Positions 47,415-64,000 of a DNA stretch of 64,000 nucleotides are shown piece by piece; within the stretch, counting starts at the first letter, position 1; every line of letters begins with the position of its first letter. The translations under genes and the position numbers were made by a program. The stretch covers positions 120,052 to 184,051 of the forward strand of contig CAVZVU010000002.1 in assembly GCA_963778795.1 (NCBI GenBank). The letters run 5' to 3'. This stretch comes from an uncultured Pseudomonadota bacterium. Its GTDB lineage: Bacteria > Myxococcota_A > Polyangia > Fen-1088. The notes under the pieces are model-generated. The model had not been told where the DNA came from and searched no databases. It was given only the letters and a program-made list of their open reading frames with translations.

Positions 47415-47620
47415 GCGTCGTCGCGCGCCGGTCACCGCCGCCTCGTCGACCCCGTAGACGCGATCTACGCGACCGCGATTTCTCGTCGGAGCAAGCCCCG
47501 CGCCCGGCGTGCGGTCCCCTCGTGACAGGTAGAGGGTTGATTTCTGCCGCATACCGACGCATCTTGCGTGCGCACAGCTCAAGGATGCGACGTAACCCTT
47601 CCACTCAAGGAGAGATTCTT

Positions 47621-48217: not shown

Positions 48218-48296
48218 GCGGAGCACGCTCGGGTCGCTCCAGCGACTCAACCACACCAAAGCGACAAACCAAAACCACAAACCAAGACCAGAAGAA

Positions 48297-48330
48297 AGGC
48301 GCTCTCCCCGACGGGAGGGCGCCTTTTTTT
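48297..48330 (+). terminator. Intrinsic terminator
   Basis: aggcgctctccc-cgac-gggagggcgcct followed by a T run. Confidence 0.85.
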
Positions 48331-48373
48331 GTTCCTGCACCGCGAGGCGGGTTACCATGTTTGCGTGGGACGC

Positions 48374-48550
48374 ATGCTGGCGCCGCTGTTGCTAGCCTTG
48401 GGGCTGCTGTTCTGCGTGGTCTCAGCGTGCGAGGACGACAGCGTCTTCCGGAGCGGCGACCTCCCGCCCGGAAACCCGGCCGATAGCGGCGCGGCGGGAG
48501 GTGGCGGAGCGGGAGGGGCCCCGACGGATACCGACGCGGGCGCCGATTAA
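48374..48550 (+). CDS. Small lipoprotein (58 aa)
   Basis: MLAPLLLALGLLFCVVSA-C followed by a low-complexity Gly/Asp tail. Confidence 0.6.
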   Translation: MLAPLLLALGLLFCVVSACEDDSVFRSGDLPPGNPADSGAAGGGGAGGAPTDTDAGAD

Positions 48551-48586
48551 ACCTCGTCTGGGCAAGGTCCGATAAGGAGATCCGAA

Positions 48587-48892
48587 ATGTTCGACACCAT
48601 GACTCTAAAGACGCTTTGTCGCCGACTGTTGGGCGCCACCTCGCTCATCGCCTGCCTGGCGACGGCGGGGTGCATCGACAACAGCGGGAACAAGACCTAT
48701 CCCCCCGCCGACGCGGCCGCCGACGCCCCCGCCGATACCGGCGCGGCGGAGACCGCGGATGATGCGCCGGCCGCCGAGACCGCGAATGACGTCCCGGCGA
48801 GCGACACCCCCACCGACCTCCCGGCGAGCGACTCGCTCCCGTCCGACACCGGCGCCGCCGACGTGCACGCCGATACCGCCAGCGGCGGCTGA
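48587..48892 (+). CDS. Small disordered lipoprotein
   Basis: TAAGGAGA RBS, TAG-C lipobox, Asp/Ala/Pro/Thr-rich. Confidence 0.75.
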   Translation: MFDTMTLKTLCRRLLGATSLIACLATAGCIDNSGNKTYPPADAAADAPADTGAAETADDAPAAETANDVPASDTPTDLPASDSLPSDTGAADVHADTASGG

Positions 48893-48895
48893 GCC

Positions 48896-50647
48896 TCACT
48901 CGACGATCGGAGCGCCGTTCGTCGCGGCGCCGTCGCGCGCCGGCGCCGGCGGTGCGGCGCGGACGGTGATCGCCGCCGTCTCGAAAGCGGGAGTCGCCGG
49001 CTCGCCGTTCGGCACTGCGGCCGGTGGCGGCGGGCTGACCGCGGGCGCGTGGTCACCGGCAGCAGCGGGCGGCGCGACGATCAGAGCGGCCCGAACCGGT
49101 GGCGGATCGGCCGGCGGCGACGGCGGCCGGCGCGCGGCGGCCGCCTTCTCGACCGCTTCGGCGGGCAGCCTGGCGACCGCAGGCGGTGGTAACCCGGCCT
49201 GGGCAGGTCCTCCCGCCGCCACCGCGGGCCGCGCGACCTCCGGCGATGGATCCTGCGACGACGGGGGGACGCCGGGCGCGGGACGCGCCCCCTCCGGCTC
49301 CGCAGCCGAGGCGGTCGCGGGACCCTGCCCCCTCCCTCTTCCGCCGACGCTCACCAGCACCGCCACGCCGACGGCAACCGCGACCACCGCGACCGCCGCG
49401 GCCACCACCGGCCAGGACCGCCCCCAGGCGGCGCGCGCCTTCCCGGCGGTCGGCGCCGCCGCGCCCCACCGCCCGAGCGCGCCGGGCGCGGATGAACGAG
49501 CCGGCGAACGAGCCATGGTGCGGGTCTCGACCTCGCTGGGCGGCGGCGTCTCCTCGCCGGCACCGCCCGCCCGGGCCGCCGAGCCGCCGGCGCGAGGGTT
49601 CCGACGGAGGGGCGACAACGGCTCGCGCCGGGCCCCCGGTTTCGCCGCCGGCGCGGGGGCGCGCCGGTCGTCGGGCAGGCTCGTCTTCGACGCCGGACCG
49701 AGGCTCGCACGATGGAACAGCGTGCTCACCAGCTCGCCCAGCGGGGCACCGTCGGCCGAGTACGCCGGCAGCGCCAGCAACGCCGACAGTGCGTCGGTCG
49801 TGGTCGCGAAGCGCTGATGGGGGCGCAGCGACAGCATCTTGCGCACGAACGCCTCGAGCGCCGGCGGGACTTTCCGGTCGGGGCAAACCAGCGTCAGCGG
49901 GGGCACGTCGCACCGCATGACCTTGCCGACGATCTCGATCTCGTCGTTGCCGTCGAACAGCGGACGGCCGGCCAGGATCTCCCACAGGGTGATCCCCATC
50001 GCGAACTGGTCGGTGCGCTGGTCGACCGGCTCGCCGTTCAGCTGCTCGGGCGACGCGTAGGAGAGCTTGCCGCGGATCGTGCCGGTCTTCGTGCGGCTGC
50101 TGTGAGCCAGCGACTTGGCGATGCCGAAATCCGACAGCTTGACCTCGCCCGAGAACCCAACCAGCACGTTGTGGGGCGAGACGTCTCGATGGACCAAGCC
50201 CAGCGGGCGCCCGTTCTCCCGCCGCTCATGCACGTAGCGCAGCCCCTTGAGCACCTCGCCCGCAAGATAGAGCGCGAGCGGCAGCGGAAAGACGTAGCCG
50301 GCGTGCTTGGCCGCCTCGACGACCCGCCGGGCGTCGTGACCCTCGACGTGCTCCATCGCGATGTAGTAACGGCCGCCCTGGCCGTGCTCGGGATCGGTGA
50401 CGACCTTGTCGAAGTCGAACACGGCGACGAGGTTCGCGTGCTGCAGCTGCGCGGCGATGCGCGCCTCCTTGACGAACAACCGCTCCAGCTCGGGATCGCC
50501 ACTGAACGACTCGAGGATGAACTTCAACGCCACCGGCTTGATGAAGCCCTCGGGCCCCTCGGCCCGCGCAGCCCAGACCTCGGCCATGCCGCCCACGGCG
50601 ATCTTCTCGCCGAGCACGTACTTGCCGATGCGTTGGCCGGGGTGCAC
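48896..50647 (-). CDS. Membrane Ser/Thr protein kinase
   Basis: GGMAEV, VALK, HRDVSPHN, DFGIAK, YASPEQ; one TM segment then a Pro/Ala tail. Confidence 0.93.
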   Translation of the reverse strand: MHPGQRIGKYVLGEKIAVGGMAEVWAARAEGPEGFIKPVALKFILESFSGDPELERLFVKEARIAAQLQHANLVAVFDFDKVVTDPEHGQGGRYYIAMEHVEGHDARRVVEAAKHAGYVFPLPLALYLAGEVLKGLRYVHERRENGRPLGLVHRDVSPHNVLVGFSGEVKLSDFGIAKSLAHSSRTKTGTIRGKLSYASPEQLNGEPVDQRTDQFAMGITLWEILAGRPLFDGNDEIEIVGKVMRCDVPPLTLVCPDRKVPPALEAFVRKMLSLRPHQRFATTTDALSALLALPAYSADGAPLGELVSTLFHRASLGPASKTSLPDDRRAPAPAAKPGARREPLSPLRRNPRAGGSAARAGGAGEETPPPSEVETRTMARSPARSSAPGALGRWGAAAPTAGKARAAWGRSWPVVAAAVAVVAVAVGVAVLVSVGGRGRGQGPATASAAEPEGARPAPGVPPSSQDPSPEVARPAVAAGGPAQAGLPPPAVARLPAEAVEKAAAARRPPSPPADPPPVRAALIVAPPAAAGDHAPAVSPPPPAAVPNGEPATPAFETAAITVRAAPPAPARDGAATNGAPIVE

Positions 50648-50773
50648 GGGATCTATACGCCGGGGCGGTGCACCGAAGTCAAGCCGGAGGCCGCTGGCGC
50701 ACTGCGGCCCCTCGGCCGGGCTTTTTTCGCCGGCACCGGTAACCTTTCTGCGGCCCCAGGATCCAAGATCGCG

Positions 50774-51550
50774 ATGCATCCCCTGCCCCGAGCCCAACCG
50801 CTGGCGCCGGCCATTTCCGCCACGCTCACCGATGCCGAGATCGTGGCGCGGGTCCTGGCCGGCGAGATCGAGCTGTTCGAGGTCCTGATGCGGCGCCACA
50901 ACCAGCGCCTGTTCCGCGCCGCGCGCGCGATCGTGCGCGACGACGCCGAGGCCGAGGACGTCATGCAGGAGGCCTATACCCGGGCATTTTCCCAGCTCGC
51001 GCGCTTCGAAGGGCGCTCGCAGTGGTCGACCTGGGTGACCCGGATCGCCGTGAACGAGGCCCTGGGTCGGGTGCGGCGCACGGGACGGTTCGTGAGCACC
51101 GATGTGGACGGCGCCCCGGGCACGCAGGACGGGGCGAGGAACGGCGGCAACGCAGGCGCGAAAGCGAGGGCCAGGTTGGATCCAAACGACGACGCGTGGC
51201 GCGAGGCGAACGGCGGGGCGGCACCTTTCCCGACCGGGCCCGAGGACCACGCCGCCGCGCGCGAGCTGGGCGGCTTCCTCGAGCGGGCGCTCGACGAGCT
51301 GCCCGACATCTACCGGTCGGTCTTCGTGCTGCGCGAGATCGAGGAGCTGTCGACCGCCGAGGCGGCGGCCTGCCTCGACGTCAGCGAGGAGCTGGTCAAG
51401 GTCCGATTGCATCGCGCCCGCGCCGCGCTCCGCCAGCGCCTCGACCAGCGCGTCGGCTCAGCGCTGCGCGGGGTCTACGGCTTCCACCTGTCGCGCTGCG
51501 ATCGGGTCGTCGCCGCCGTGATGGCACGTATCGGCCCACCGAAGCCGTGA
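50774..51550 (+). CDS. ECF RNA polymerase sigma factor with C-terminal RCDR motif
   Basis: FEVLMRRHNQRLFR, AEDVMQEAY, WVTRIAVN, VKVRLHRAR, FHLSRCDRVV. Candidate own promoter GTAACC...GATCC at 50739-50764. Confidence 0.93.
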   Translation: MHPLPRAQPLAPAISATLTDAEIVARVLAGEIELFEVLMRRHNQRLFRAARAIVRDDAEAEDVMQEAYTRAFSQLARFEGRSQWSTWVTRIAVNEALGRVRRTGRFVSTDVDGAPGTQDGARNGGNAGAKARARLDPNDDAWREANGGAAPFPTGPEDHAAARELGGFLERALDELPDIYRSVFVLREIEELSTAEAAACLDVSEELVKVRLHRARAALRQRLDQRVGSALRGVYGFHLSRCDRVVAAVMARIGPPKP

Positions 51551-51600
51551 TCGCGTCGAGCGTAGGCAGGCTTGCCTGCCGGAGCTCATCGCGGGAGGTT

Positions 51601-51621
51601 CGGAACCCTTTGAGGGTTCCG
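51601..51621. repeat. Hairpin GGAACCCT-N3-AGGGTTCC, copy 2
   Basis: Between the convergent sigma and ABC ATPase genes. Confidence 0.75.
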
Positions 51622-51639
51622 AGGTAAATGACGCTCGGA

Positions 51640-53193
51640 TCAGCCCACGCCAGCCATGAGGCGCATCACCGTCGCCTGATCGGCGCGCGCGCGCATGACC
51701 TCGCCGGTGATCGCTCCGCGGCGCATCACCAAGATCCGTGTCGACAGGCCGATCAGCTCCTGCAGCTCGCTCGAGATCAGCAGCACCGCGCTCCCCTCGG
51801 CAGCGAGCCGATCGATGAGTCCGTGGATCTCCGCCTTGGCCCCGACGTCGACGCCCCGGGTCGGCTCGTCGAGGATCAGCACGCGGCAGCGCGCCGCCAG
51901 CCACTTCGCGAGCACGATCTTCTGCTGATTTCCGCCCGACAGGCCGGCGGTGACCACGTCGATGTTCGCCGCGCGCACGCCCAGCCGCTCGGCCAGACGG
52001 CGCGCAAGGATCGCCTCGGCCTGGCGGCGGATCCAGCCGAAGCGCGCCAGCGCCGGCAAGATCGGCAGCGTGAAGTTGTGCGCCGCCGACATGCCGAGCA
52101 CCAGACCCTGACGCTTGCGATCCTCGGGCACCAGGCCCAGGCCGGCGCGCATCGCCGCGCGCGGTGACGACAGCCTGATCGGCTTTCCGTCGACCAGCAC
52201 GCGGCCAGTCGCGTGCGCATCGAGCCCGAACAGCGCCTGCGCCACCTCCGAGCGGCCGGCGCCGACGAGACCGGCCAGCCCAACCACTTCGCCCGCACGG
52301 ATCTCCAGCGAGACGTCACGGAACCTCCCCGGGCTCGACAGCCCCTCGACGCGCAACAGCTCCGTCCCCGGCGACGACGACACGTGCGTGGGCAGGTACT
52401 CGTCGAGCCGGCGGCCGATCATGAGGTGAACCAGCTTGGCCTCGTCGAGGCTGCTCGCCGGCTGGGTGGTGACGTGCCCGCCGTCGCGCAGCACCGTGAT
52501 GGTGTCGCACAGCTTGAAGATCTCAGGCATGCGGTGCGAAACGTAGACGCAGGTGACGCCGCGCGCGCGCAGCCTCTCCATCAGCGCGTACAGACGATCG
52601 GCCTCGCCCTGCGACAGGCTGCTGGTCGGCTCGTCGAAGATGATGACCCGCGCGCCGCTGCCGACGGCCGCGGCGATCTGGACCATCTGCTGCTGCCCCA
52701 GCGACAGCGTGCCCACGGGGCGCTGTACGTCGACGTCGACGTCGGCGTCGATCGCCTGCAGCATGGCGAGCGCGCGCCGCTCGAGCTCGCGCCAGTCGAC
52801 GAACATCCGCCGTGTCGGCAGCCGCCCCAGGCACAGGTTCTCGGCGACGGTGAGGTTCTCGCACGACGCCAGCTCCTGGTGAACGATGCCGATCCCGGCG
52901 CGCAGGGCGGCGCCGGGGTTGCGCAGCTCCGCGCGCTTTCCGTCGACGATCACCTCGCCCGCGTCGGGGGCGTAGATGCCGGCCAGGATCTTCGCCAGCG
53001 TGCTCTTGCCGGCGCCATTCTCGCCGCACAGCGCGTGGCACGAGCCGCGCCGGATATCGAAGGTGACTGCCTCGAGGGCGAGCACGCCGGGGAAGCGCTT
53101 GCTGACGCCGGAGAAGCGGACCGCCGGGGGCGCCGTTTCATCGGCCGGAGCGGCGGCGTCGATCCCGGCATCGAGCCCGATTTGCGTCCCCAT
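51640..53193 (-). CDS. Sugar ABC transporter ATP-binding protein (RbsA/MglA-type, two NBDs)
   Basis: GENGAGKS, FDEPT, LSGGNQQK, LDEPTRGVDVGAK. Confidence 0.96.
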   Translation of the reverse strand: MGTQIGLDAGIDAAAPADETAPPAVRFSGVSKRFPGVLALEAVTFDIRRGSCHALCGENGAGKSTLAKILAGIYAPDAGEVIVDGKRAELRNPGAALRAGIGIVHQELASCENLTVAENLCLGRLPTRRMFVDWRELERRALAMLQAIDADVDVDVQRPVGTLSLGQQQMVQIAAAVGSGARVIIFDEPTSSLSQGEADRLYALMERLRARGVTCVYVSHRMPEIFKLCDTITVLRDGGHVTTQPASSLDEAKLVHLMIGRRLDEYLPTHVSSSPGTELLRVEGLSSPGRFRDVSLEIRAGEVVGLAGLVGAGRSEVAQALFGLDAHATGRVLVDGKPIRLSSPRAAMRAGLGLVPEDRKRQGLVLGMSAAHNFTLPILPALARFGWIRRQAEAILARRLAERLGVRAANIDVVTAGLSGGNQQKIVLAKWLAARCRVLILDEPTRGVDVGAKAEIHGLIDRLAAEGSAVLLISSELQELIGLSTRILVMRRGAITGEVMRARADQATVMRLMAGVG

Positions 53194-53202
53194 GGCGACG
53201 AC

Positions 53203-54300
53203 CTAGGGCATCTTGAGGTACTGCTCGGGTACGTCGACGAAGCCCCAGCTCACCAGCTGGCGCGCCCAGGTGCCAAGGTTCTCGCGCGTCACCCGCACCG
53301 GCTCCATCGGGATGATCGTCGGCACATCCTTCTTGAAGTGGATCTTGTCGATCACCGTGGTGACCCCGACCCGGCCCCACAGATACGGCGCCTGCGCGAT
53401 CAGCACCGGCGTCAGCCCCTTCTCGATGTAGGGCAGCTCGGGCGCGAGCGCGTCGACCGCGACCACCTTCACCTTCTTGGGATCGAGATCGGTGAGCAGC
53501 GTCTTGGTGTAAAGCGCCCAGCCGCCGACCATCGCCCAGCCCCGGATGTCGGGGTAGGCGTTGTTGACGCGGATGACTTCGGACGCGGCGTCCTGCGGCG
53601 TCTCGAGGTGATAGAAGGTTCCGACGATCTGGATGCCCGGGTGCTTGGCGGCCTCGAGCTTGACCGCGTCGACCCGCATCCTCAGGTTGGGGGCGTTCTG
53701 GTTTCCGGCCAGGATCGCGATCCGCCCGCGGCCGTCGATCTGCTTTGCCAGCTCGACCATCACGTCCTGGCCCATGCGATGATCATCGACGCCGTAGAAC
53801 GAGAACCGCTTGGACTGCGGGGCGTCGCTGTCGAACGTCATGACCGGCACCCCGCGCGCCACCGCGTCGTCAATCGCGCCCGTGACCTTGCCGGCATCGG
53901 AGCACGAGACCAGGATCGCGCTCGACCCTTCGTTCACCGCCTGGGCGATCCGCTGCGCCTGGATCTGGCCGTCCTCTTGCGGCGGCGTCAACCACGCGAT
54001 CTCGATCGGGATGCCGATCTTCGCCGACAGCTCCTTGGCCGTCGTCTCGGCGCCGGTGCGCGCCGAGAGAAATACCGGGTTGGTCGAGCTCTTGGCGATC
54101 ATCGCGATCCGGATCGCCTTGACGGCGCCCGCGCCGCCGGTCGCCTGCGCCGCCCGCTCGCCGCCCGTCGGCGCACGCCCGCGGTTGCAGCCGATCGACG
54201 TCGACGTCACCAGGGCCAACACCAAGGCCAGGGCGATCGACGAGATCGACGAGATCGGCAAGCTCCGGGTCGTCATCCTCCGGGTCATCCTCGGGGTCAT
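53203..54300 (-). CDS. Sugar ABC transporter substrate-binding lipoprotein
   Basis: SIG-C lipobox, KSSTNPVF, GVPVMTFDSD; TGATG coupling to the permease. Confidence 0.92.
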   Translation of the reverse strand: MTPRMTRRMTTRSLPISSISSIALALVLALVTSTSIGCNRGRAPTGGERAAQATGGAGAVKAIRIAMIAKSSTNPVFLSARTGAETTAKELSAKIGIPIEIAWLTPPQEDGQIQAQRIAQAVNEGSSAILVSCSDAGKVTGAIDDAVARGVPVMTFDSDAPQSKRFSFYGVDDHRMGQDVMVELAKQIDGRGRIAILAGNQNAPNLRMRVDAVKLEAAKHPGIQIVGTFYHLETPQDAASEVIRVNNAYPDIRGWAMVGGWALYTKTLLTDLDPKKVKVVAVDALAPELPYIEKGLTPVLIAQAPYLWGRVGVTTVIDKIHFKKDVPTIIPMEPVRVTRENLGTWARQLVSWGFVDVPEQYLKMP

Positions 54301-55445
54301 CACCCGGATCCGGCCTCCCGGTTGCCGGCGTCCTCCGGACGAGGGGTACCCTCCAGCCGCCTGGCCGCGGCGTCCTCCGCTGGCCGCGCCCCGATCGCCG
54401 AGGGTGGACCCCCGCGCAGGCTGCCCCGCGCGAGGCGGCGCGCCGCAAAACGGGTGCTGGACTGATCGAGCACCACCGCGATCACAATCGCGCAGCCGAT
54501 GATGATCCATTCGTAGTTCTGGTCGAAGTGCAGCGTTCGAATCGACTGTCGAATGAGCACGATCAAGATCGCGCCCAGCATGGCGTTGATGGCGCTCCCC
54601 TTGCCACCGCTGAGGCTGGCCCCGCCGACCACCGCCGATGCGATCACGTATAGCTCATATCCCGTCGCGTCTCCACAGGACGCCGAGCCATAAAAGCTGG
54701 CGCCCAGGAACGACGCCAGCGCCGCGGTCACGCCCGAAACCAGGTAGACACCCAGCTGGATGCGTCCAATGCGCAGCCCCGAGAAGCGGCTCGCCTCGAC
54801 GTTGCCGCCGATGGCGAAGACGTGCCGGCCCATGACGGTGCGCGACAGGTAAATCGCCCCCGCGACGCTGACCAGCAGCATGCTCAGCATCGGCACCGGA
54901 TAGAGCGACGCGCCCATCCCCAGCGATGCCTTCGCGACCCGCGTCAGCGGCTCGGGCAGCAGGATGCTCTCGGCCTTGCTGCTGACGAACGCGAGCCCGC
55001 GCAGGATCCACATCGTCCCCAGCGTGATGATGAACGGATGGACGCGCAGCCCCACGACCATCGCGCCGTTCAAGAGACCGGCGAGGAAGCCGATCGCCAC
55101 CGCGACCCCCAGCGCCAGCCCGACCGTGGCCAACGCCGTCTGCGGCTGCAGCGTGCGGATCGCCAGCGCCATCCCCACGCCGGCCAGCGCGTAGACCGAC
55201 CCCACCGACAGATCGATCCCCGCGGCGATGATGACGATCGTCGCGCCCACCGCCATGATCGCGAAGAAGCTCGCGTCGGTCGCGGTCTGGATCAGCGTGT
55301 ACGAGTTGAGGAAGTTATTGACGGTCGCGCCGGTGACCGGGTCGGCGTGCGTTCCTGCGAGCAGGCTCAGGGCGACGGCGAGCCCGACGATGACCAGCAG
55401 CAAGCCGGCCTGCTGCGAGCGGAACAGGCGGCGGAGGACGCCCAT
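54300..55445 (-). CDS. Sugar ABC transporter permease (RbsC-type)
   Basis: GIDLSVGS, PFIITLG, GGNVEASRFSG, ELYVIASAVVGGASLSGGKG. Confidence 0.96.
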   Translation of the reverse strand: MGVLRRLFRSQQAGLLLVIVGLAVALSLLAGTHADPVTGATVNNFLNSYTLIQTATDASFFAIMAVGATIVIIAAGIDLSVGSVYALAGVGMALAIRTLQPQTALATVGLALGVAVAIGFLAGLLNGAMVVGLRVHPFIITLGTMWILRGLAFVSSKAESILLPEPLTRVAKASLGMGASLYPVPMLSMLLVSVAGAIYLSRTVMGRHVFAIGGNVEASRFSGLRIGRIQLGVYLVSGVTAALASFLGASFYGSASCGDATGYELYVIASAVVGGASLSGGKGSAINAMLGAILIVLIRQSIRTLHFDQNYEWIIIGCAIVIAVVLDQSSTRFAARRLARGSLRGGPPSAIGARPAEDAAARRLEGTPRPEDAGNREAGSG

Positions 55446-55739
55446 GGGACCTCAAGTAATATATGACGCTGGCGCCGAAGCAATCCGCGTTTCCAGTCGA
55501 GCGGTGGCCCGAGCGACCCGTCGGAGAAACCTCGCGATCTGGAGATTTCGGAAGATTGATTCCGCCCGCAGGATCGACGCGCGGCGAGAGGGAGGAAGAC
55601 ACCATCAGCAGCGACGGTCGGCCGACCGCGTCGCCGGATGGATCGCCAACCCAAGGATCGGGTATAAGCGTGAGGGTGTTCCCCTGCAACGGAACCGACG
55701 GCCGGCGTCAACCCAACCCCCGTTTGTGACGATCTTCCG

Positions 55740-55770
55740 TGAGCCGCTTCGCGGCCGTGAGGCTACTGCC
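55740..55770 (+). promoter_or_regulatory. Putative ECF promoter TGAGCC-N16-GCTACT (copy 1)
   Basis: 25/31 identical to 59301-59331. Confidence 0.7.
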
Positions 55771-55819
55771 TCAGGAGGCTATCTCGCTCCAAATGCTCAA
55801 CCCCCCGTCGGAGACAGTC

Positions 55820-57061
55820 ATGATTTCCCGTGGCGCCGTTGCTCGAGTCATTCACGAATCACGGGCGGGGTTGATGGCGGTGGCGGGAATCTCGGTGTGG
55901 GCAGCGCTGGTCGGAGGCGCGTGCCAGAGCGCGCCGATCAGCGGTGGCATGACCGATCCGGGCGGCTCCGGCGGCAGCGCCGTCGGTGACGGCACCGGGG
56001 CCGGCGGCGCCACCGGCGGCGGCGGCAACGCAGGAAGCATGGGCCTCGGGGGTCGTGCCGGCGTTGGCGGCGGGCCCGGGAGCGGCGGCATGGGGATGGG
56101 GGGCCGCATCATCGTTGGCGGGGGCGGCGGGCTCGCCGTTCCGCCCAGCTGCGGCTCGACGACGCTCAACCTGAACCCGTTCGGCTGCAACCTCGCCTGG
56201 GGCACGCAGAACCCGGGCGGGTCGCTCAGCGGCCTTGGCGCCCTGCAGTTCGTCTCGTTCTGGATCGGCTCGGAGGCGCGCGCCGACGGTACGCTGAGCG
56301 GATGCAGCGGCTGCACCTGGCTCACGAACCAGGTCTCGAAGGTCAGCAACCTGACCCCGGTCTTCTACGCGTACGTCATTGGCTTCTACGGTCACGCCAA
56401 CGGCCTGCCCGACGGAAACGTCGCGCCGAACGGCCCCAACCTGACCACGGGCGGCGCGAACCTGATCCGAAACAACCGCGCGAAGATCATCCAGATGTAC
56501 AGCAGCTACGCGCAGCAGGCGCATACGGCCTGGCCCACGAAGCCGCTGGTCTGGCTGCTGGAGGGCGATTTCGTGCAGTACACCGGCACCTCGCAGGCGA
56601 GCCCGCTCAGCTACGCCGAGCTGGCCCAGCTGGCCGAGGACATCACCTGCGCGATCAAGGCGAACATGCCCAACGCCGTCGTCGCCATCAACCACTCCAC
56701 CTGGAACACCAACGACGTCACCAACAAGTTCTGGGCGGCGATGGCGGGCGTGAACTACGACATGGCCTGGACCAGTGGCGCGGGCAACGTCAACGACTTC
56801 TTCACGCCGGGAACGACCGCGAAGTCGTACAACGGCGCGACCGCGACCTATGCTTACCTCCACAACCTCACCGGCAGGACGATCCTTGTCGACACCAGCT
56901 TCGGTCTCTCGGGCGCGGGTGACTCCTGGTCCGACACCGGCGCCGCCAACCTGAATGCGCGCATCGCCGACGGCGTCATCGCCGTGAACGTCACCAGCCC
57001 CGCTTCGAACTACGCCAGCAACATCGCTGCCGAGACCGGGTTGGCGACGACCTGCCACTGA
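55820..57061 (+). CDS. Lipoprotein with Gly-rich linker and unassigned glycoside-hydrolase-like domain (paralog 1)
   Basis: GGA-C lipobox-like motif; LVWLLEGDFVQY, MPNA, ILVDTSFG, NLNARI. Confidence 0.75.
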   Translation: MISRGAVARVIHESRAGLMAVAGISVWAALVGGACQSAPISGGMTDPGGSGGSAVGDGTGAGGATGGGGNAGSMGLGGRAGVGGGPGSGGMGMGGRIIVGGGGGLAVPPSCGSTTLNLNPFGCNLAWGTQNPGGSLSGLGALQFVSFWIGSEARADGTLSGCSGCTWLTNQVSKVSNLTPVFYAYVIGFYGHANGLPDGNVAPNGPNLTTGGANLIRNNRAKIIQMYSSYAQQAHTAWPTKPLVWLLEGDFVQYTGTSQASPLSYAELAQLAEDITCAIKANMPNAVVAINHSTWNTNDVTNKFWAAMAGVNYDMAWTSGAGNVNDFFTPGTTAKSYNGATATYAYLHNLTGRTILVDTSFGLSGAGDSWSDTGAANLNARIADGVIAVNVTSPASNYASNIAAETGLATTCH

Positions 57062-58422
57062 TGGAAACGCCGGAGGAGCCTATGACCCCAGCACCTCGGA
57101 GTAGTGCGGGACCCTCGTCGATCCGCCGGCTCGCGGGCGCGGCCGCAACCGCGCTGGCGCTGGTGACGGGAGCCTGCACCGGCACGCTCGGGCTGCCCGG
57201 CGACATGAACGGCACCGGCGCGCACGGCGCCGGCGGCAGCGCCAGCGGCGCCGGCGGGGGGGCGGTCAACTCGGGCGCGGGCGGCGGCGCGGGACCGACC
57301 GGCGGCGCGGGCGGAGCGATCGGAACCGGTGGCAACACCAGCGGCGGCGCGGGTGGCAGGGGCGCCGGCGGCGCGCTCGGAACCGGCGGCGCCATCGGCG
57401 GCAGCGGCGGCCGGACCGGCACCGGCGGCGCGTCGGGAGTCGGGGGCGCGCCGGGGGTCGGCGGGCGCACCGGCGCGGGTGGCTCGACGGGGACGGCGTT
57501 CAGCCAGTGCCGATTCCACTTCGGCACCGTCGATGCGATCGCCCGCGGCAACCCCGCGATGATCCCTCAGCTGGACTTCTACACGCCGGGCTGGATGGGC
57601 AGCATCAGCGACACGTTCGACATGGGGTACGTCTGCACCGACACCAAGGCGGGCGGGACCTTCGCCAATCAGGTGCCGGTGATCGTGGCGTACGTGGCGG
57701 CGTTCTACGTCAAGCGGCACGCCGGGCTCTCGGACTGCGGCGCGGCGCCCGGCGGCGCGACCACCGATCTGTGCCACCAGGGTGCGGCCGCGATCCAGGC
57801 CAACCTGGCCGCCATCGTCAACGTCTACCGCAGCTTCGCGCAGGGCTTCGCCGCCTGCTACGGCACGACCCGACCAATCATCTTCGAGATGGAGCCGGAC
57901 TTCTATCAGTACACCTACACCGGTTCGACCGGGCAGACCCAGCCCTGGACCTACGCGCAGGCGGGGCAGATCATGGGACAGTTCGTCGGGGCGATGAAGC
58001 CAGCGCTGCCGAACGCGCTGTTCTCGATGGATATCTCGCCCTGGGTTGGGACGAATAACAACACAGGATCCAATGGTTCGGACAATGGCCTCAACTGGTA
58101 CTCGAACTTCGATATGACCCAGTTCACCTTCATCAACACGTCGGGCGGCTCGACCAACGCCGCGGCGGCGCAGATTCGCGGCAACGCGATGACCTGGGCC
58201 GGGGTCAGCAACGCCACCGGCAAGCCGATCCTCGCCGACACCGGCTACGGTTTCAATGGCAGCTCGGCCGGGCCGGATCCGGCCTGGGATTCGCCGGCCA
58301 ACATCAACGCCCGCATGCTGAACGGCGTGGTCTCGATCAGCCAGTACAACCCCGCCGGCAGCTGGGGGACGACGATCGCCGGGATTCGGGGACAGCTCCA
58401 GGCGCCACCGATCTGTCCGTGA
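57061..58422 (+). CDS. Lipoprotein with Gly-rich linker and unassigned glycoside-hydrolase-like domain (paralog 2)
   Basis: TGA-C lipobox; IIFEMEPDFYQY, LPNA, ILADTGYG, NINARM. Alternative start at 57082. Confidence 0.75.
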   Translation: METPEEPMTPAPRSSAGPSSIRRLAGAAATALALVTGACTGTLGLPGDMNGTGAHGAGGSASGAGGGAVNSGAGGGAGPTGGAGGAIGTGGNTSGGAGGRGAGGALGTGGAIGGSGGRTGTGGASGVGGAPGVGGRTGAGGSTGTAFSQCRFHFGTVDAIARGNPAMIPQLDFYTPGWMGSISDTFDMGYVCTDTKAGGTFANQVPVIVAYVAAFYVKRHAGLSDCGAAPGGATTDLCHQGAAAIQANLAAIVNVYRSFAQGFAACYGTTRPIIFEMEPDFYQYTYTGSTGQTQPWTYAQAGQIMGQFVGAMKPALPNALFSMDISPWVGTNNNTGSNGSDNGLNWYSNFDMTQFTFINTSGGSTNAAAAQIRGNAMTWAGVSNATGKPILADTGYGFNGSSAGPDPAWDSPANINARMLNGVVSISQYNPAGSWGTTIAGIRGQLQAPPICP

Positions 58423-59303
58423 GGGGCGGGAGGTGCGCGGCGGCGCGCGCGGCGGTGGTGCTGGGGGTGGTTGTGGCGGCGATGGGGTGCCGTCGGGGAG
58501 GGACGACGGCGGCGTCTACGGGCGCGACTACGACAGCGACTACGTTGACGACCAGGTCCACGTTGACGACCAGGTCCACGTCTACGTCCACGATCGGGGG
58601 GGCGGCGGTGGGTTTTGCGCAGGCGATCGTCGAGTTGGCGCCGGCGATCCATGAGCGGCAGACGAGGGAGGTGCGGATCGCGGGCCGACTGGCGGGGAAC
58701 GCGCGTCTGACGATCGAGCGCGTCGAGGATCCGGCGCTCGAGGTCGAGGTGCTGGCGCCCGCAGGCGAGCAGGCGCCGGGGTTGCGACTCGGGTTCACCG
58801 GCGACCGCGTCGGCGTTCGCACCGGGCAGATCGTGGTCGCGACCGGGCTCGACGAGCCGGCGCGATTGACGCTGCTCTACAGCCTGCGCGTCCGCGGCAG
58901 CGTCGAGGTCACGCCGTCCAACCCCTACTTCAACCTGCGCGATCCTGGCGCCCGCGAGCGGGTGCTCACCGTGCGCGGACACCAGCCCGGGTTTCGCGTG
59001 CGCGCGGCGCAGGTGCTCGCGGGGCCGTTTCGCGCCAGCGTCGCGTCCGACGGCTCCGGCGACGGGACGGCGGCGATCCGGATCGGTATCGACGAACGGG
59101 CGATCGGGACCGACCAGCAACGCGGATTTCTGGGCCGCCTGCGGGTCCTCAGCAACGACCCCGCCGAACCGGCGACGGAGGTGCCGCTGTTCGCCATGGG
59201 GGCGCTGCCCCTGCCCCACCCTGTCACCGACAGCGACTCCGGCACCGTCGCCGACGCGGGCGGTCGCGGCGCCGACAGTACCTGGGGCGGCGCGACTCGA
59301 TGA
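58419..59303 (+). CDS. Hypothetical lipoprotein, Thr-rich linker plus beta-sandwich-like domains
   Basis: AMG-C, GTGA overlap, LRVLSNDP motif typical of Ig-like (ASH) domains. Confidence 0.7.
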   Translation: MRGGRCAAARAAVVLGVVVAAMGCRRGGTTAASTGATTTATTLTTRSTLTTRSTSTSTIGGAAVGFAQAIVELAPAIHERQTREVRIAGRLAGNARLTIERVEDPALEVEVLAPAGEQAPGLRLGFTGDRVGVRTGQIVVATGLDEPARLTLLYSLRVRGSVEVTPSNPYFNLRDPGARERVLTVRGHQPGFRVRAAQVLAGPFRASVASDGSGDGTAAIRIGIDERAIGTDQQRGFLGRLRVLSNDPAEPATEVPLFAMGALPLPHPVTDSDSGTVADAGGRGADSTWGGATR

Positions 59304-59331
59304 GCCGATTCCCGGCGGGTACGCTACTGCC
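59301..59331 (+). promoter_or_regulatory. Putative autoregulatory ECF promoter (copy 2)
   Basis: tgagccgattcccggcgggtacgctactgcc directly upstream of the ECF gene. Confidence 0.7.
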
Positions 59332-59354
59332 AATCGAGGTACATTCCTTGGCCC

Positions 59355-60011
59355 ATGGGCAACCAATCAATGCCAGCTGACCGCACCCAGGTGCCGCTCA
59401 GCGTCGTGCCGGTCGGTCGCGCCAGCGAGCCGACCGACGCCGAGCTGGCGCACGCGCTCAAGGCCGGCGAAGAGTGGGCGGCCGCGGCGACCTGGAATCG
59501 GTTCGCCCCCGTGGTGTACGGAATCGCCTGCCGCGCCATCGGCAGCCAGAACGACGCCGAGGATGTCACCCAGGAGGTCTTCTTCCACCTCTTCGCGCGC
59601 GTCGGCACGCTGCGCGATCCGGCGGCGTTTCGCAGCTTCGTGGTGTCGTTCGCCCTGCGCATCGTCAAGTGGGAGCTGCGCCGCCGGCGCGCTCGGCGGT
59701 GGCTGCTGCTGACGCCGGCGAGCCTGCTGCCCGAGACGCCGGGCATCGATAGCGACCCCGAGGCGCGCGAGGTGTTGCGCCGTTTTTACACCGTGCTCGA
59801 TCAGCTGCCGGCCCGCGATCGCCTGGTCTTTGCGTTGCGCTACCTCGAGTCGATGACCCTCGAGGAGATCGCCGACACGCTCGAGATATCGCTGTCGACG
59901 GTGAAGCGAAACTTGAGCCACGCCTCGGCGCGCGTGTCGCGCTGGATCGCGGGCGATCGCGATCTGGTGACGTTCTTCGAGAGGAGGAGGAGGGACGATG
60001 ATTCGGTCTGA
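59355..60011 (+). CDS. ECF RNA polymerase sigma factor
   Basis: AEDVTQEVF, LRDPAAFRSF, MTLEEIADTLEISLSTVKR. Confidence 0.95.
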   Translation: MGNQSMPADRTQVPLSVVPVGRASEPTDAELAHALKAGEEWAAAATWNRFAPVVYGIACRAIGSQNDAEDVTQEVFFHLFARVGTLRDPAAFRSFVVSFALRIVKWELRRRRARRWLLLTPASLLPETPGIDSDPEAREVLRRFYTVLDQLPARDRLVFALRYLESMTLEEIADTLEISLSTVKRNLSHASARVSRWIAGDRDLVTFFERRRRDDDSV

Positions 60012-61407
60012 TGGCGGGCGCGACCCAACCGATGGTCTCGCCGCCGTGGCGGCGCTGGCGCGCGAGGCGGCGCCGCCGATGACGCCGTTGCAGCGCATGC
60101 GTGGTCTGCAGGCGGTGTCGCTGCGGCGCGAGGCGCGGCAGCGCCGGCGGCGCGGGTTGCTGGTCGCATTTACGCTGTCGGCGTGCGGCGTGGTCGGGGT
60201 CTTGGCCGTCGGCCTGCTGGGTCCGCCGGCGCTGCACGGGCGGCGCTCGCTGCAAGCGTCGCGAACCCCGCAGGCGCTGTCCTCGCCGCAGGCGCTGCCG
60301 GGCGGGGCCAACGCGACGCCCCTCTCCTATCGCGTCGACCACGGCGAGATCGGCGACGGCGGCTATCTCCGTGCCAATCCCCATTCTTCCGGCGACGGCA
60401 CGGGCGTTGGACTGCGCTTCGCCGAGGGGACCGAGCTGCGCCTGGCCGCCGGCGCTCGCGGACGGCTGACCAGCGTCGACGCTCAGGGCGCCCGCTTCGC
60501 GATCGAGCAGGGGGAGGCGGCGGTCAACGTCGTGCCGCGCCCGGGCGCGCGCTGGCTCATCGACGCGGGTCCCTTCCTCATCACCGTTCACGGCACGATC
60601 TTCACCGCGTCCTGGGACGGCGCCAGCGAACAGCTCGACGTCAGAATGAAGCACGGCTTGGTGTCGGTGAGCGGACCGGTCGCCGACGGAAAGATCGCCG
60701 TGCGCGCCGGCCAGCGGCTGACGATCAACGTTCCGGAGCGCGAGGTCCTGCTGCGGCCGAGCGACGACGCCGACGTAACCGACGTGCCGGCCGCGTCCGT
60801 CGAGCCGAGCGCCGCGGAAGCGCCGCCGGCCGCCCTGGCGCACCCGGCGCGCGCGGCGGCGCCGTCGCGCGCGGCGACCTCTCGGAGCGCACCGACGCGC
60901 GCGGCGCCTTCGTCGATCGGCTTCCGGACGAGCGACCCCGCGCGCAGCTGGACGGCGGCGCTGGCCAGCGGTGATTTCCAGGGCATCCTGCGCGATGCCG
61001 AGCACTACGGCCTGCGGCGCGCGCTCGCCGACGTCCGGAGCGAAGACCTGGCGGCGCTCGCCGACGCCGCCCGATACCTGCGCCGCGAGGACCTGGCGCG
61101 GCAGGCGCTGATCGCGCAACGCCAGCGCTTTCCGCGCACCGAGCGCGCGCACGAGGCGGCCTTCCTGCTCGGCCGGTTGACCGAGAGCGGCGCCGAGGGA
61201 GACGTCCGTGCCCTCGGCTGGTACGACCGTTACCTGGGCGAGGCCCCGACCGGCGCCTACGCGTCGGAGGCGCTCGGTCGCAAGATGACGGCGACCGAGA
61301 AGCTGAGGGGGCGGGCGGCGGCGCGCGATATCGCGCGCGAGTACCTGCGGCGCTTCCCCCACGGGACATACGCCGGCGCCGCCCAGGCCTTAGCGGAATC
61401 ACCCTAG
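59998..61407 (+). CDS. FecR-like anti-sigma factor with C-terminal TPR
   Basis: One TM segment; LRFAEGT..AGPFLITVHGT.F..V..G.V.V (FecR); YDRYLGEAPTGAYASEALGR, YLRRFPHG. Confidence 0.88.
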   Translation: MIRSDGGRDPTDGLAAVAALAREAAPPMTPLQRMRGLQAVSLRREARQRRRRGLLVAFTLSACGVVGVLAVGLLGPPALHGRRSLQASRTPQALSSPQALPGGANATPLSYRVDHGEIGDGGYLRANPHSSGDGTGVGLRFAEGTELRLAAGARGRLTSVDAQGARFAIEQGEAAVNVVPRPGARWLIDAGPFLITVHGTIFTASWDGASEQLDVRMKHGLVSVSGPVADGKIAVRAGQRLTINVPEREVLLRPSDDADVTDVPAASVEPSAAEAPPAALAHPARAAAPSRAATSRSAPTRAAPSSIGFRTSDPARSWTAALASGDFQGILRDAEHYGLRRALADVRSEDLAALADAARYLRREDLARQALIAQRQRFPRTERAHEAAFLLGRLTESGAEGDVRALGWYDRYLGEAPTGAYASEALGRKMTATEKLRGRAAARDIAREYLRRFPHGTYAGAAQALAESP

Positions 61408-61432
61408 CTCCGGCGTCGGGCGCAAGAGGACG

Positions 61433-62482
61433 ATGGCGGTGACCCGGACGCTCGCGCCGACCGCGGTCATCGGCGTGTTGCTGGGGGTGGCCGTACCGGC
61501 GCACGCAGCGACGGTGGTGCTGATCAAGGCGCCGCACCCGAGCGCGATCGCCAGTGAGGCGACGGTGCGCCTGCGCGGCGAGCTGACCGCGGGCGGCTTC
61601 GACGTGACCGTCGTCGAGTCGCCGGCGGGGGAAGACCCGCGCGCCTTTCTCGAGGAGCAGGCGGCTGCCCCCGACGTCGAGGCGGTGGTCGCGATCCTGG
61701 CCGCGGCGCCGACTGACATCGTCGAGCTGTGGGTCATCGATCGCGTCACCGGCAAGACCGTCACGCGCCGCCTGCCGGCCGAGCCGGCGACCGCGCGCTC
61801 GGCCGAGGTGCTGTCGATCCGCGCGCTGGAGCTGCTGCGCGCGAGCTTCCTCGAGATCGCGCTCGGCGCGAGCCGCGCCGGACCCGACCCGTCGACGCCG
61901 CCACCGCCTCCGCCGCCGCCCGAGGTGGCGCGCATGACCGAGGTCGCCCTCGACAACGGCTGGCCGAAGACCTGGGCCATCGAGGCCGGCGGCTGCCTGC
62001 TCGGCAGCTTCGAGGGCTTCTCTCCGTCGCTGGCGCCGGTGGTGCGCGGCGAGCGCATCTGGCTCGATCGGATCGTCGGCCGCTTGACCATCGCCGGCCT
62101 GGGGACGCCGGCCCACGTGAAGTCGATGGTCGGCAGCGCCAGCGTGTCGCAGACCTTCGGGCTGGTCGAGGTGGCGGTCAAGCTGCGACCGGAGACGCGC
62201 CTGCGCCCGTTCCTGTCGCTGGGCGCCGGCGTCCTGCACGTCACCGCCGAGGGGCGGGGGACGGCGTTCCCCTACCAGGCGCTGAGCGGCGACCAATGGT
62301 CACCGATCGCCGACGCCGGCGCCGGCGTGCGGGTCGCGCTGCGCGGGCGATTCGAGCTGGCGGCCGAGGTGCACGCCCAGGTCGCCCGGTCCTACCCGGA
62401 GATTCATTTCGTCGACGGCACCGTGGCGCGCAGCGGCCGGCCGACGGTGATCGGCAGCCTGACGCTGGTGGCGTGGCTATGA
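61433..62482 (+). CDS. Exported protein with probable C-terminal outer-membrane beta-barrel
   Basis: Signal AHA-A; WVIDRVTGKT, LSIRALELLRAS; amphipathic strands; terminal ..LVAWL. Confidence 0.7.
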   Translation: MAVTRTLAPTAVIGVLLGVAVPAHAATVVLIKAPHPSAIASEATVRLRGELTAGGFDVTVVESPAGEDPRAFLEEQAAAPDVEAVVAILAAAPTDIVELWVIDRVTGKTVTRRLPAEPATARSAEVLSIRALELLRASFLEIALGASRAGPDPSTPPPPPPPPEVARMTEVALDNGWPKTWAIEAGGCLLGSFEGFSPSLAPVVRGERIWLDRIVGRLTIAGLGTPAHVKSMVGSASVSQTFGLVEVAVKLRPETRLRPFLSLGAGVLHVTAEGRGTAFPYQALSGDQWSPIADAGAGVRVALRGRFELAAEVHAQVARSYPEIHFVDGTVARSGRPTVIGSLTLVAWL

Positions 62483-63321
62483 GCGCTCCGGCGCGACGCG
62501 GCTCTCGCTCTGCCTGGTGGCGCCTGGCCGGTCTGGTCGCCGCCTGCGGCGCCGGCCTGGCCGCCGGATGCGACCCGGGACGGATCGACGCCGTCGGGCT
62601 CGACCCGAAGAGCACGACCAGCGGCCTGCTCGCGTACTGGTCGTTCGACGACGGCAGCGGAACCATCCTCGCCGATCTATCGGGAAACGGCCGCACCGGC
62701 ACGGTCTTGCCCGGGGCGACCTGGACCAAGACGGGACAGTTCGGCGGCGCGCTGCACTTCGACGGCACGACGATGGCCGAGGTCGACGTCCCGATGTTCC
62801 CTGCGGCGACCGGCAGCTGGAGCGTCGCGGGATGGGTGAACGCGCCCGACGGCGACACCGGCGACCTCTACGCGACGATCATCAGCACGGAGGCGCTGCA
62901 GATCGGCGGCTGGGAGTTGAACCTCCGCCTGGTGCCACCCGGCACGGTCGCCGCGAAGCCGTCGCTGTACCAGTTCGCCTACTGGGTCGGCATCACCGGC
63001 CTGTCCGACTACGCCAACCAGGAGTGCGCCTGCTTCGTGCCCAACAAATGGGTCCACGTGGCCGGCGTCTTCGACGCCGACGCGCACCGCTTGTCGTTCT
63101 ATCGCAACGGCGAGCTGATGGGCTCGAGCGCGACGACCCAGAACATCCGCGCCGGCAGCAGCACGCTCTATTTCGGGCGCTGGGGGAACGACGACAGCCG
63201 GCGGTTCACCGGAGATCTCGACGACTTCGTGATCTACAACCGCGTGCTGGTGCTGGCCGAGATCCAGCGCCTCGCGCGCGAGAAAGTACCGATCTCCGGC
63301 ACGGCGACGCCCGCGCCCTGA
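62479..63321 (+). CDS. LamG/ConA-like lectin-fold lipoprotein
   Basis: AAG-C lipobox; LLAYWSFDDGSG, GALHFDG, WVHVAGVFD, FTGDLDDFVIYNRVL; ATGA overlap. Confidence 0.9.
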   Translation: MSAPARRGSRSAWWRLAGLVAACGAGLAAGCDPGRIDAVGLDPKSTTSGLLAYWSFDDGSGTILADLSGNGRTGTVLPGATWTKTGQFGGALHFDGTTMAEVDVPMFPAATGSWSVAGWVNAPDGDTGDLYATIISTEALQIGGWELNLRLVPPGTVAAKPSLYQFAYWVGITGLSDYANQECACFVPNKWVHVAGVFDADAHRLSFYRNGELMGSSATTQNIRAGSSTLYFGRWGNDDSRRFTGDLDDFVIYNRVLVLAEIQRLAREKVPISGTATPAP

Positions 63322-63362
63322 TGCCGCCTGTCCGGCGTCAGTGCGACGCCGCCTGCCCGGCG

Positions 63363-64000
63363 TCAATGCGCTGCGGGCGCGCGCTTCGACCGCGCCTTCG
63401 CCGGTGCGTGGGTCTTGCCTCCGGGCGCCTTCCCTCGGACCGACGACGTCTTGCCCTTGGCCGATCCTTTCACCGATCCTCGGACCGATCCCTTAGCCGA
63501 TCCTGGGACCTCGCGCGTGCAGGCGCGCATGATCTCCGCCTGCGCGCTCGGCGGCGGGAGCGGCGACGGGCTCCAGCCGCGGCAGAGCGCGCCGACCGGC
63601 CCGGCGTCGCCCGCGGCCCCGGCGACGCAGTAGACGCCGACGCCGTCGGGGCGCGCCGAAAACAGCGCCGGCGTGGCGGCCGCACCGGCGGCGGTCGGCG
63701 GCGCGCCGGTCGCGCCTGGGCTCGCCGCCGACGGATCCTCGAGACGCGCGCTGAGCACGTTCACGACCTCGATGCGGCGCCGCGCCTGCTCCGGATCGGC
63801 GAACGGCGCCGGCTGGCGGTGCATGTCGCGGATCGGGACGAGCTCGATGGCGCGCAGCGCGAGGCGCCCGCCCGGCACCGTGCGCCGCAGATGCACGCGC
63901 GCCAGCAACCCGTAGTCACGGCAGCCGGCGAACGCTGGCTCCGCCCCCATGTCGCGCGCGCCGCGCAGCATGAAGTTGCCCAGCCCGTAAAAGATCGGCA
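63363..64000 (-). CDS. CapA/PgsA-like metallophosphatase, C-terminal part (5' end outside window)
   Basis: PIFYGLGNF motif at the window edge, then IELVPI. Confidence 0.7.
   Translation of the reverse strand, partial: PIFYGLGNFMLRGARDMGAEPAFAGCRDYGLLARVHLRRTVPGGRLALRAIELVPIRDMHRQPAPFADPEQARRRIEVVNVLSARLEDPSAASPGATGAPPTAAGAAATPALFSARPDGVGVYCVAGAAGDAGPVGALCRGWSPSPLPPPSAQAEIMRACTREVPGSAKGSVRGSVKGSAKGKTSSVRGKAPGGKTHAPAKARSKRAPAAH

Follow-up and report, generated by a model that had tools for sequence, protein, structure and literature searches.

The 64,000-nt stretch of DNA analysed here, hereafter the window, comes from a soil myxobacterium of the Polyangia (genome G000, contig C2, positions 120052-184051; assembly of 8.5 Mb in 7 contigs, 78.6% complete). 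It carries on its plus strand four adjacent genes that form a signalling cassette: a sigma factor of the extracytoplasmic function (ECF) type, an anti-sigma factor in which a FecR-like domain is joined to a tetratricopeptide repeat (TPR) domain, a protein with a predicted small outer-membrane barrel, and a lipoprotein whose fold is of a carbohydrate-active kind, in this case LamG. Three further lipoprotein genes, lipoA, lipoB and lipoC, lie immediately upstream. We consider it fairly probable that the promoter recognised by the sigma factor is TGAGCC-N16-GCTACTG, located 5' of both the sigma operon and lipoA-lipoB-lipoC, and that the LamG lipoprotein, the barrel and the TPR domain would act as a signalling relay. 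In functional terms, the locus is likely to represent a TonB-independent ECF cassette controlling glycosidase-like lipoproteins.

Organisation of the plus-strand genes

A preliminary description of this region had listed ten genes, the seven of the plus strand and three of a divergent sugar importer. All of them were found in the places first assigned to them, with third-position G+C (GC3) values between 0.88 and 0.94 in DNA of 70% G+C. The features of the plus strand were as follows:

55740-55768, plus strand: ECF-type promoter P1, TGAGCC-N16-GCTACTG, 5' of lipoA (exact motif match)
55793-57061, plus strand: lipoA, lipoprotein whose Gly-rich linker precedes a predicted (beta/alpha)8 glycosidase-like domain (GC3 0.90; AlphaFold2 model and fold search)
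57061-58422, plus strand: lipoB, distant paralogue sharing the build of lipoA (tblastn)
58419-59303, plus strand: lipoC, lipoprotein whose linker is Thr/Ser-rich, with a DUF1573-related region of Ig-like type (domains of homologues)
59301-59329, plus strand: ECF-type promoter P2, TGAGCC-N16-GCTACTG, 5' of the sigma gene, its -35 element overlapping the lipoC stop codon (exact motif match)
59355-60011, plus strand: ECF sigma factor (Sigma70_r2 1.3e-9, r4_2 3.4e-14, TIGR02937 1.7e-25)
59998-61407, plus strand: predicted single-pass FecR-TPR anti-sigma factor (FecR 22.7 bits, under the Pfam cut-off of 24; YbgF 0.0034)
61433-62482, plus strand: exported barrel protein, its periplasmic alpha/beta domain joined to a predicted 8-stranded outer-membrane barrel (AlphaFold2 model and fold search)
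62479-63321, plus strand: LamG (concanavalin-like) lipoprotein (Laminin_G_3 1.7e-21, 77.4 bits, cut-off 27.6)

Junctions between these genes were short, with overlaps of 1, 4, 14 and 4 nt and gaps of 51 and 25 nt; the 14-nt overlap joins the sigma and anti-sigma genes, and the LamG gene, starting at 62479, is coupled to the barrel gene by an ATGA overlap. The tight coupling first proposed for this run was evident at its junctions, but the run is not one uninterrupted operon since a second promoter is located at 59301-59329. It is composed of two units with one ECF-type promoter each, lipoA-lipoB-lipoC and sigma/FecR-TPR/barrel/LamG. The start of lipoA was corrected to the ATG at 55793 or 55820 instead of the GTG at 55739, which was rejected because it falls inside the promoter.

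A promoter shared by the sigma operon and the lipoproteins

Apart from its two exact copies in the window, TGAGCC-N16-GCTACTG occurred only once more in the whole genome (3 matches, both strands), whereas 150 composition-matched permuted motifs gave a mean of 0.32 matches and 3 of the 150 reached 3. In relatives, the motif took the form TGA(A/G/C)CC, a spacer of 16 or 17 nt and GC(T/G/A)ACTG, and was placed 20-60 nt 5' of the start codon. The relatives' loci were drawn from 301 sampled genomes of the class, 82 of which contained a match to the barrel protein; for 20 of these 82, the best barrel match was taken with 8.6-19.9 kb of context. Across these 20 loci (689,174 nt, both strands) the relaxed motif had 12 matches; 10 of them, spread over 10 loci, stood directly 5' of the sigma gene. 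One of the two remaining matches lay 5' of lipoA in the same-genus genome G130 (locus L033, on contig C36) and the other one was stray.

A set of 60 lipoA loci from species-representative genomes was also collected, 51 of which had enough upstream sequence for counting the motif. It was found on the coding strand, 200-900 nt 5' of the lipoA-family domain, in 11 of these 51 loci, compared to 0.31 expected from the match rate of the same loci, with a signal-peptide ATG downstream of the matches. Orthologues of lipoA preceded by the motif included those of L033/L068, L066 and L067. In G130 the motif also occurred 5' of an unlinked lipoB-like gene and of another lipoprotein with a Gly linker; no motif was found upstream of the lipoB paralogue located on contig C5 of G000. 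With the motif preceding the sigma gene in 10/20 relatives and the lipoA family in 11/51 loci, probable autoregulation of the sigma operon and putative direct control of lipoA-family genes by such a sigma factor are supported at the level of DNA sequence. The earlier proposal that the cassette induces hydrolase-like lipoproteins is likewise favoured by the fact that they share their ECF-type promoter with the sigma operon, both here and in relatives.

Two more lipoprotein genes of G000 carried the motif, exact or near-exact, 5-6 nt before their start codons. One encodes a glycoside hydrolase (GH) of family GH12 with Stig1-like Cys repeats (C1:1770805-1773229, locus L053), its upstream neighbour being of BNR/Sortilin type. 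The other one encodes a GH29 protein with an F5/8-type-C domain (C5:590233-591936, L054) and adjoins a GH31 (+PA14) gene. Together with the BNR/Sortilin and GH31 neighbours, these lipoproteins have the appearance of a set of enzymes for hemicellulose (xyloglucan-like). They are retained only as candidate targets, because the link with the motif was not confirmed in relatives.

Conservation of the cassette in Polyangia

Relatives of the barrel protein were present in 34 of the 46 genomes of the window's own family, and several copies per genome were common. Relatives bore the names Polyangia or Polyangiaceae. The sigma, anti-sigma and barrel genes were colinear in 20/20 cassette loci, and a lipoprotein gene followed the barrel gene in 18/20. 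This fourth gene varied: it encoded a LamG lipoprotein in 13 loci, an esterase-like lipoprotein of ~340 residues, with Esterase_PHB/DLH scores below cut-off, in 4, and a GH141-like protein in 1 (L050, 3135-5048, G275:C343; a 638-residue beta-helix lipoprotein, GH141_M 8.9e-30), and in the remaining 2 loci none was recognisable. Co-conservation of the sigma, FecR-TPR and barrel genes is thus strict, in line with the preliminary description.

The arrangement of the window was repeated gene for gene, with 52-93% identity, in L066 and in the short-contig locus L067; synteny of the ten genes with both promoters was full in L066 and limited by the contig in L067. In the G130 locus lipoA was kept, and lipoB, lipoC and the ATPase gene of the importer were missing. 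Other GH and carbohydrate esterase (CE) families were detected with Pfam among 125 open reading frames (ORFs) neighbouring the cassettes, namely GH30 and GH39 in L040, GH8 in L042, GH44 and CE2 in L048, an alpha-amylase in L051, and GH43 in L052.

A census of G000 with hidden Markov models (HMM) yielded about nine FecR-TPR genes and five barrels, four of them beside a FecR-TPR gene. All four resulting cassettes were located at ~6 kb or less from GH genes (lipoA/B; GH31; GH8-like + BNR; GH16). Apart from the window, C5:521446-525000, C5:726664-729164, C6:944911-947919 and C6:604499-606614 hold the cassettes of this genome that adjoin GH31, a GH8-like gene with BNR and another ECF gene, and GH16, and in addition a barrel and LamG pair with no FecR gene detected.

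Predicted structure of the cassette proteins

The anti-sigma factor is predicted to be built of a short cytoplasmic N-terminus, a membrane helix, a FecR-like domain, a variable Pro/Ala-rich linker and a CpoB/YbgF-like TPR domain. Its hydrophobic stretch was read from the sequence at residues 54-76, and the family alignment showed two conserved blocks. Searched against the PDB, the family profile matched an anti-sigma structure (4m0n, E 1.3e-3) and CpoB (6g5s, E 2.9e-3). The FecR match of the single sequence was weak, and a Pfam search at E 10 with the TPR part returned noise only.

The protein encoded at 61433 presented a signal peptide, an alpha/beta domain (residues 27-145), a Pro-rich linker and an all-beta domain (residues 178-349), and was modelled by AlphaFold2 with a pLDDT of 77.8. 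The all-beta domain was predicted as an 8-stranded antiparallel barrel, with block pLDDT values mostly of 81-95. Its best fold matches were OmpW (Z 18.6) and OprF-N (Z 18.0, root-mean-square deviation (rmsd) 1.8), followed by OmpA, NspA and PagL. Foldseek also gave matches to OmpA, OmpW and OmpX (OmpA, E 1e-7). The "barrel-like" character attributed earlier to this protein is accordingly borne out by the model and the fold search, which both predict an outer-membrane barrel. It resembles the OmpA/OmpW/OmpX barrels in having 8 strands and ~170 residues, but differs from them in lacking any sequence-family match: no Pfam or NCBIfam match was found, the PDB sequence search gave E 0.44 or worse, and none of its 427 relatives bears any other name than "hypothetical protein".

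The most conserved blocks of this family were located within residues 40-140, that is, in the N-terminal domain. Only generic alpha/beta matches were obtained for this domain (Z 9-10), including tRNA-synthetase anticodon-binding domains, and whole TolB chains were weakly matched by Foldseek (probability 0.5-0.84, TM about 0.2); the N-domain of TolB is, we assume, of the same fold class as these anticodon-binding-type matches. No STN-like fold appeared in the fold search, Pfam at E 10 gave noise and the Atlas search had no usable match.

TonB-dependent receptors

FecI/FecR signalling normally needs a TonB-dependent transducer and is understood as TonB-powered. No TonB-dependent receptor or Plug domain was found in positions 46000-64000 of the window, and no SusD in the locus. 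None of the 15 Plug matches of the genome was on contig C2, the contig of the window, and the single STN match of the genome was 36 kb away from the nearest Plug match, so that no STN-bearing TonB receptor was detected in this assembly, which is 78.6% complete. The lack of a TonB-dependent transducer at hand, on which the preliminary description had based its proposal, was thus corroborated for the gene neighbourhood, the contig and the lone STN match.

The lipoproteins lipoA, lipoB and lipoC

Neither lipoA nor lipoB had Pfam or NCBIfam matches at E 0.01, nor PDB matches by sequence or profile. The lipoA family comprises at least 523 members, none of them named and all from Polyangia wherever labelled. 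The C-terminal 306 residues of lipoA were modelled with high scores (pLDDT 89.5, pTM 0.91) as eight strand/helix units. In a fold search over 48,161 representative chains, the best 50 VIA matches listed were all (beta/alpha)8 glycoside hydrolases (Z 14.5-16.9; 220-272 aligned residues, rmsd 3.2-4.3, 6-15% identity), and the families among the matches listed were GH35, GH5, GH26, GH53, GH42, GH1, GH10, GH39 and beta-amylase. Foldseek agreed weakly (E about 1e-5, TM about 0.5).

Clan GH-A enzymes have as catalytic pair a Glu acid/base after strand 4 and a Glu nucleophile after strand 7. In lipoA, both of these strands are followed by acidic residues, E141 (LLEGDF) after strand 4 (136-140) and D251 (VDTSFG) at the end of strand 7 (247-251), yet the strand-7 residue is Asp rather than Glu; E141 and D251 are invariant or nearly so in the family. 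Homology of lipoB with lipoA was detected by tblastn (34% identity over 251 aa, E 7.5e-21) and by MAFFT alignment, in which lipoB retains E141, D143, D207 and D251 of lipoA, whereas BLASTP gave no alignment between them. The likeness to clan GH-A (GH5, GH26, GH35, GH53 and others) thus resides in the predicted (beta/alpha)8 fold and in the acidic residues ending strands 4 and 7, and the difference in the strand-7 Asp and the lack of a sequence-family match, with fold scores that place lipoA outside any listed family. The earlier label "GH-like" for these two lipoproteins holds by fold and not by sequence. On the basis of the model, lipoA and lipoB are predicted to belong to an undescribed family of glycosidase-like TIM-barrel lipoproteins.

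The third lipoprotein, lipoC, had no Pfam match of its own (at E 10, noise only) and its Atlas leads scored 0.90-0.91. Its earlier designation as "Ig-like" is reasonable, since 25 of its 91 homologues carry DUF1573 (PF07610) and/or a HYDIN-type Ig domain (PF22544). The linkers that follow the lipobox cysteine are long, Gly-rich in lipoA and lipoB and Thr/Ser-rich in lipoC, a build common to motif-bearing genes elsewhere and to many relatives.

The adjacent ABC importer

The three minus-strand genes upstream of lipoA encode an ATP-binding cassette (ABC) importer:

51640-53193, minus strand: sugar-type ABC ATPase with two nucleotide-binding domains (ABC_tran 1.9e-52, two stretches); a neighbour of doubtful membership in the system
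53203-54300, minus strand: periplasmic sugar-binding lipoprotein of CUT2 type (Peripla_BP_4 4.4e-44); neighbour
54300-55445, minus strand: ABC permease (BPD_transp_2 9e-37); neighbour

They are tightly coupled in the order permease, binding protein and ATPase, the ATG of the binding protein at 54300 sharing 1 base with the permease stop codon. The architecture is that of a CUT2 importer, with a fused two-domain ATPase, a BPD_transp_2 permease and a Peripla_BP_4 binding protein, and no equivalog scored above cut-off: the best NCBIfam rows were AraG, XylG and RbsA for the ATPase and RhaS for the binding protein (76 bits, cut-off 342), and ribose-type rows for the permease, all below cut-off.

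Proposed mechanism and alternative explanations

In the mechanism that we favour, the LamG lipoprotein would bind, at the outer membrane, a glycan or a fragment of one, and the barrel protein would relay this binding through its periplasmic domain to the TPR domain of the anti-sigma factor. The latter would then lose its activity, probably through regulated proteolysis like that of FecR, releasing the sigma factor, which would transcribe its own operon and lipoA-lipoB-lipoC from the shared promoter. A sugar ligand, contacts between the partners, an inward direction of the signal, and hydrolases that are enzymatically active and located at the surface would all belong to this scheme. A wider version of it may be put forward as a tentative suggestion, for which we see somewhat less than an even chance: Polyangia would possess a modular TonB-independent trans-envelope glycan sensor, in which an interchangeable lipoprotein receptor derived from lectins or carbohydrate-active enzymes (CAZymes), whether LamG, esterase-like or GH141-like, docks to the barrel, the TolB-N-like domain contacts the CpoB-like TPR domain, and each copy drives its own lipoprotein glycosidases, including lipoA/lipoB as a new GH family.

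Several points weigh against the favoured mechanism. The motif was derived by eye from 300-nt upstream stretches of the sigma genes in the same loci in which it was counted, and relatives that are near-duplicates (L066/L067/L068, L119/L121 and L122/L125) are not independent. Half of the cassettes (10/20) were devoid of the relaxed motif and therefore have other promoter specificities. For a looser motif, whole-genome counts did not exceed those of a reversed-pattern control (6 vs. 6 in G130 and 3 vs. 5 in G301), so only its position relative to genes carries weight. The claim of a xyloglucan regulon was dropped, as GH12 was not found in G130 or G301 at E 1e-20 and the GH29 homologue of G301 (64% identity) had no motif. 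Genes of the lipoA family were found beside the cassette in only 2/20 cassette loci and 6/60 lipoA loci, which does not sustain lipoA/B as general neighbours of the cassette. CAZyme counts near cassettes are raw counts. Five of the about nine FecR-TPR genes of G000 had no HMM-detected barrel adjoining, although 1-2 of them adjoin divergent barrels seen by eye. Finally, the enzyme activity of lipoA and lipoB, predicted from their fold, is unproven because D251 is Asp and there is no sequence-family match.

Three other explanations were weighed. The first concerns the limits of the system: the whole block, including the importer, could be one polysaccharide-utilisation unit in which the products of the hydrolases enter via the adjacent ABC system, as the preliminary description had it. 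Divergent adjacency is indeed kept in L066; of the importer genes, L067 also shows the permease and G130 the binding protein. The ATPase is nearest to the pentose/hexose importers AraG, XylG and RbsA. However, no ECF motif was present on the ABC side of the intergenic region, which measures 294 nt. Beyond the window, adjacency of the importer to the cassette was limited to the nearest relatives (L066 and L067), and ABC genes were present in only one of the 20 cassette loci, that of G130, no sugar ABC being found at the other 19. In this one locus (L033, 8265-9680) the binding protein is intact (91% identity), but of the permease only three fragments of 14-31 residues survive and no ATPase was found. 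We hold this explanation to be doubtful; uptake of the products by the ABC system may occur but is backed only by adjacency in the nearest relatives, and the importer is a lineage-specific neighbour and not a demonstrated part of the system.

It is also conceivable, if rather unlikely, that the barrel and LamG lipoprotein serve as outputs, forming a co-expressed surface device that binds or anchors glycans, with a role like that of a surface glycan-binding protein, while the FecR/TPR part directly senses an oligosaccharide or an envelope cue. Both genes are downstream in an autoregulated operon, the fourth gene codes for carbohydrate-active folds (LamG, esterase-like and GH141-like), and some FecR-TPR genes of G000 lack a detectable adjoining barrel. 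Set against this, the 20/20 colinearity of barrel and anti-sigma genes and their translational coupling are more typical of partners than of cargo, and the conserved periplasmic domain (residues 40-140) is not obviously needed by a surface anchor. Less probable still is an envelope-stress monitor like sigmaE/RseA, watching over the assembly of its own barrel or lipoprotein, or over outer-membrane damage, in which the hydrolase-like neighbours would be incidental or serve envelope remodelling. ECF/anti-sigma pairs commonly sense envelope stress, and the resemblance of the TPR domain to CpoB and, weakly, of the barrel N-domain to TolB recalls parts of the Tol-Pal envelope system. A multi-copy cassette whose variable fourth gene has carbohydrate-active folds, a promoter recurring 5' of lipoA-family genes (11/51 loci) and GH genes adjoining all four G000 cassettes all argue against a stress monitor.

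Relation to known systems

The sigma/anti-sigma pair lacking a TonB receptor has already been published, group ECF267 having been described in 2021 (Casas-Pastor et al. 2021, PMC7826278). According to the group description, ECF267 occurs in Sorangium and Chondromyces, with an anti-sigma factor resembling FecR, fused to TPR, at position +1, and is explicitly said to lack TonB-dependent receptors, whether FecA-like or other. The same description gives the target promoters as "not conserved" and proposes control by phosphorylation, with 1-3 kinases in the genetic context. Compared by description, our cassette shares with ECF267 the Polyangia host, the FecR-TPR anti-sigma at +1, the lack of a TonB receptor and a kinase, here ~9 kb upstream. 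It differs in having a barrel at +2, a lipoprotein at +3 and a recurring promoter, whereas the description of ECF267, as far as it goes, includes neither the barrel nor the lipoprotein. A literature search found no paper on the barrel/lipoprotein module or on its promoter and targets.

The cassette resembles FecI-FecR-FecA in that an ECF sigma factor and an anti-sigma, here predicted to be single-pass and to have its FecR-like domain in the periplasm, are encoded with an outer-membrane protein, autoregulation being likely. In contrast, its partner protein has a predicted 8-stranded barrel and an N-terminal alpha/beta domain, vs. a 22-stranded TonB-dependent transducer with STN; the C-terminal part of the anti-sigma is a CpoB-like TPR domain, the lipoprotein is a fourth component, and the targets would be glycosidase-like lipoproteins instead of an iron transporter. 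The PUMA3 system of P. aeruginosa (VreA-VreI-VreR), as presented in PMC2729926, is likewise a non-canonical cell-surface signalling system with a small receptor component and no TonB-dependent barrel. VreA is depicted there as mostly periplasmic, with an STN-like and a TolA/TonB-like domain and no barrel, whereas the cassette has a true barrel by prediction, no STN detected, and a lipoprotein. Closest in purpose, judging from the accounts in PMC2709373 and PMC10328401, are the ECF-sigma/anti-sigma pairs of Bacteroides polysaccharide utilisation loci and SigI/RsgI of Clostridium, which sense an outside polysaccharide and switch on glycan-degrading enzymes. The Bacteroides loci employ SusC-like transducers (PMC2709373), and no SusC/SusD pair is present here; RsgI uses a carbohydrate-binding domain of its own for sensing, in a Gram-positive envelope (PMC10328401), whereas the putative sensor of the cassette is a separate lipoprotein plus a small barrel.

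If the favoured mechanism is true, a small barrel and a lipoprotein would provide a second route by which signals cross the outer membrane and a handle on CAZyme regulation in myxobacteria that degrade cellulose and hemicellulose. Thanks to the shared promoter, the regulon can be tested directly, and the lipoA/lipoB family, with its at least 523 members, may be a new glycoside hydrolase family.

Other neighbouring genes

Frame-split genes were observed in G000, namely DUF1552-like pieces at 66318-68035, past the window end (G000:C2:186369-188086), and a FecR-TPR gene broken over two frames at C1:144666-145797. Together with a completeness of 78.6% in only 7 contigs, they suggest assembly indel errors, and some ORF boundaries may therefore be artefacts.

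A convergent PGA_cap (CapA-like) gene with a Lys/Ser-rich tail closes the plus-strand run (63363-64856, extending past the window end) and occupies the same place in G130. Upstream, positions 46000-64000 include a metallophosphatase, a Ser/Thr kinase and a second ECF sigma factor. The kinase (minus strand, Pkinase 3.6e-33) is divergent from this second sigma factor (48896-51550), which corresponds to the C-terminal part of the plus-strand ORF 49712-51550; the kinase/sigma pair is also found in G130 (L033).

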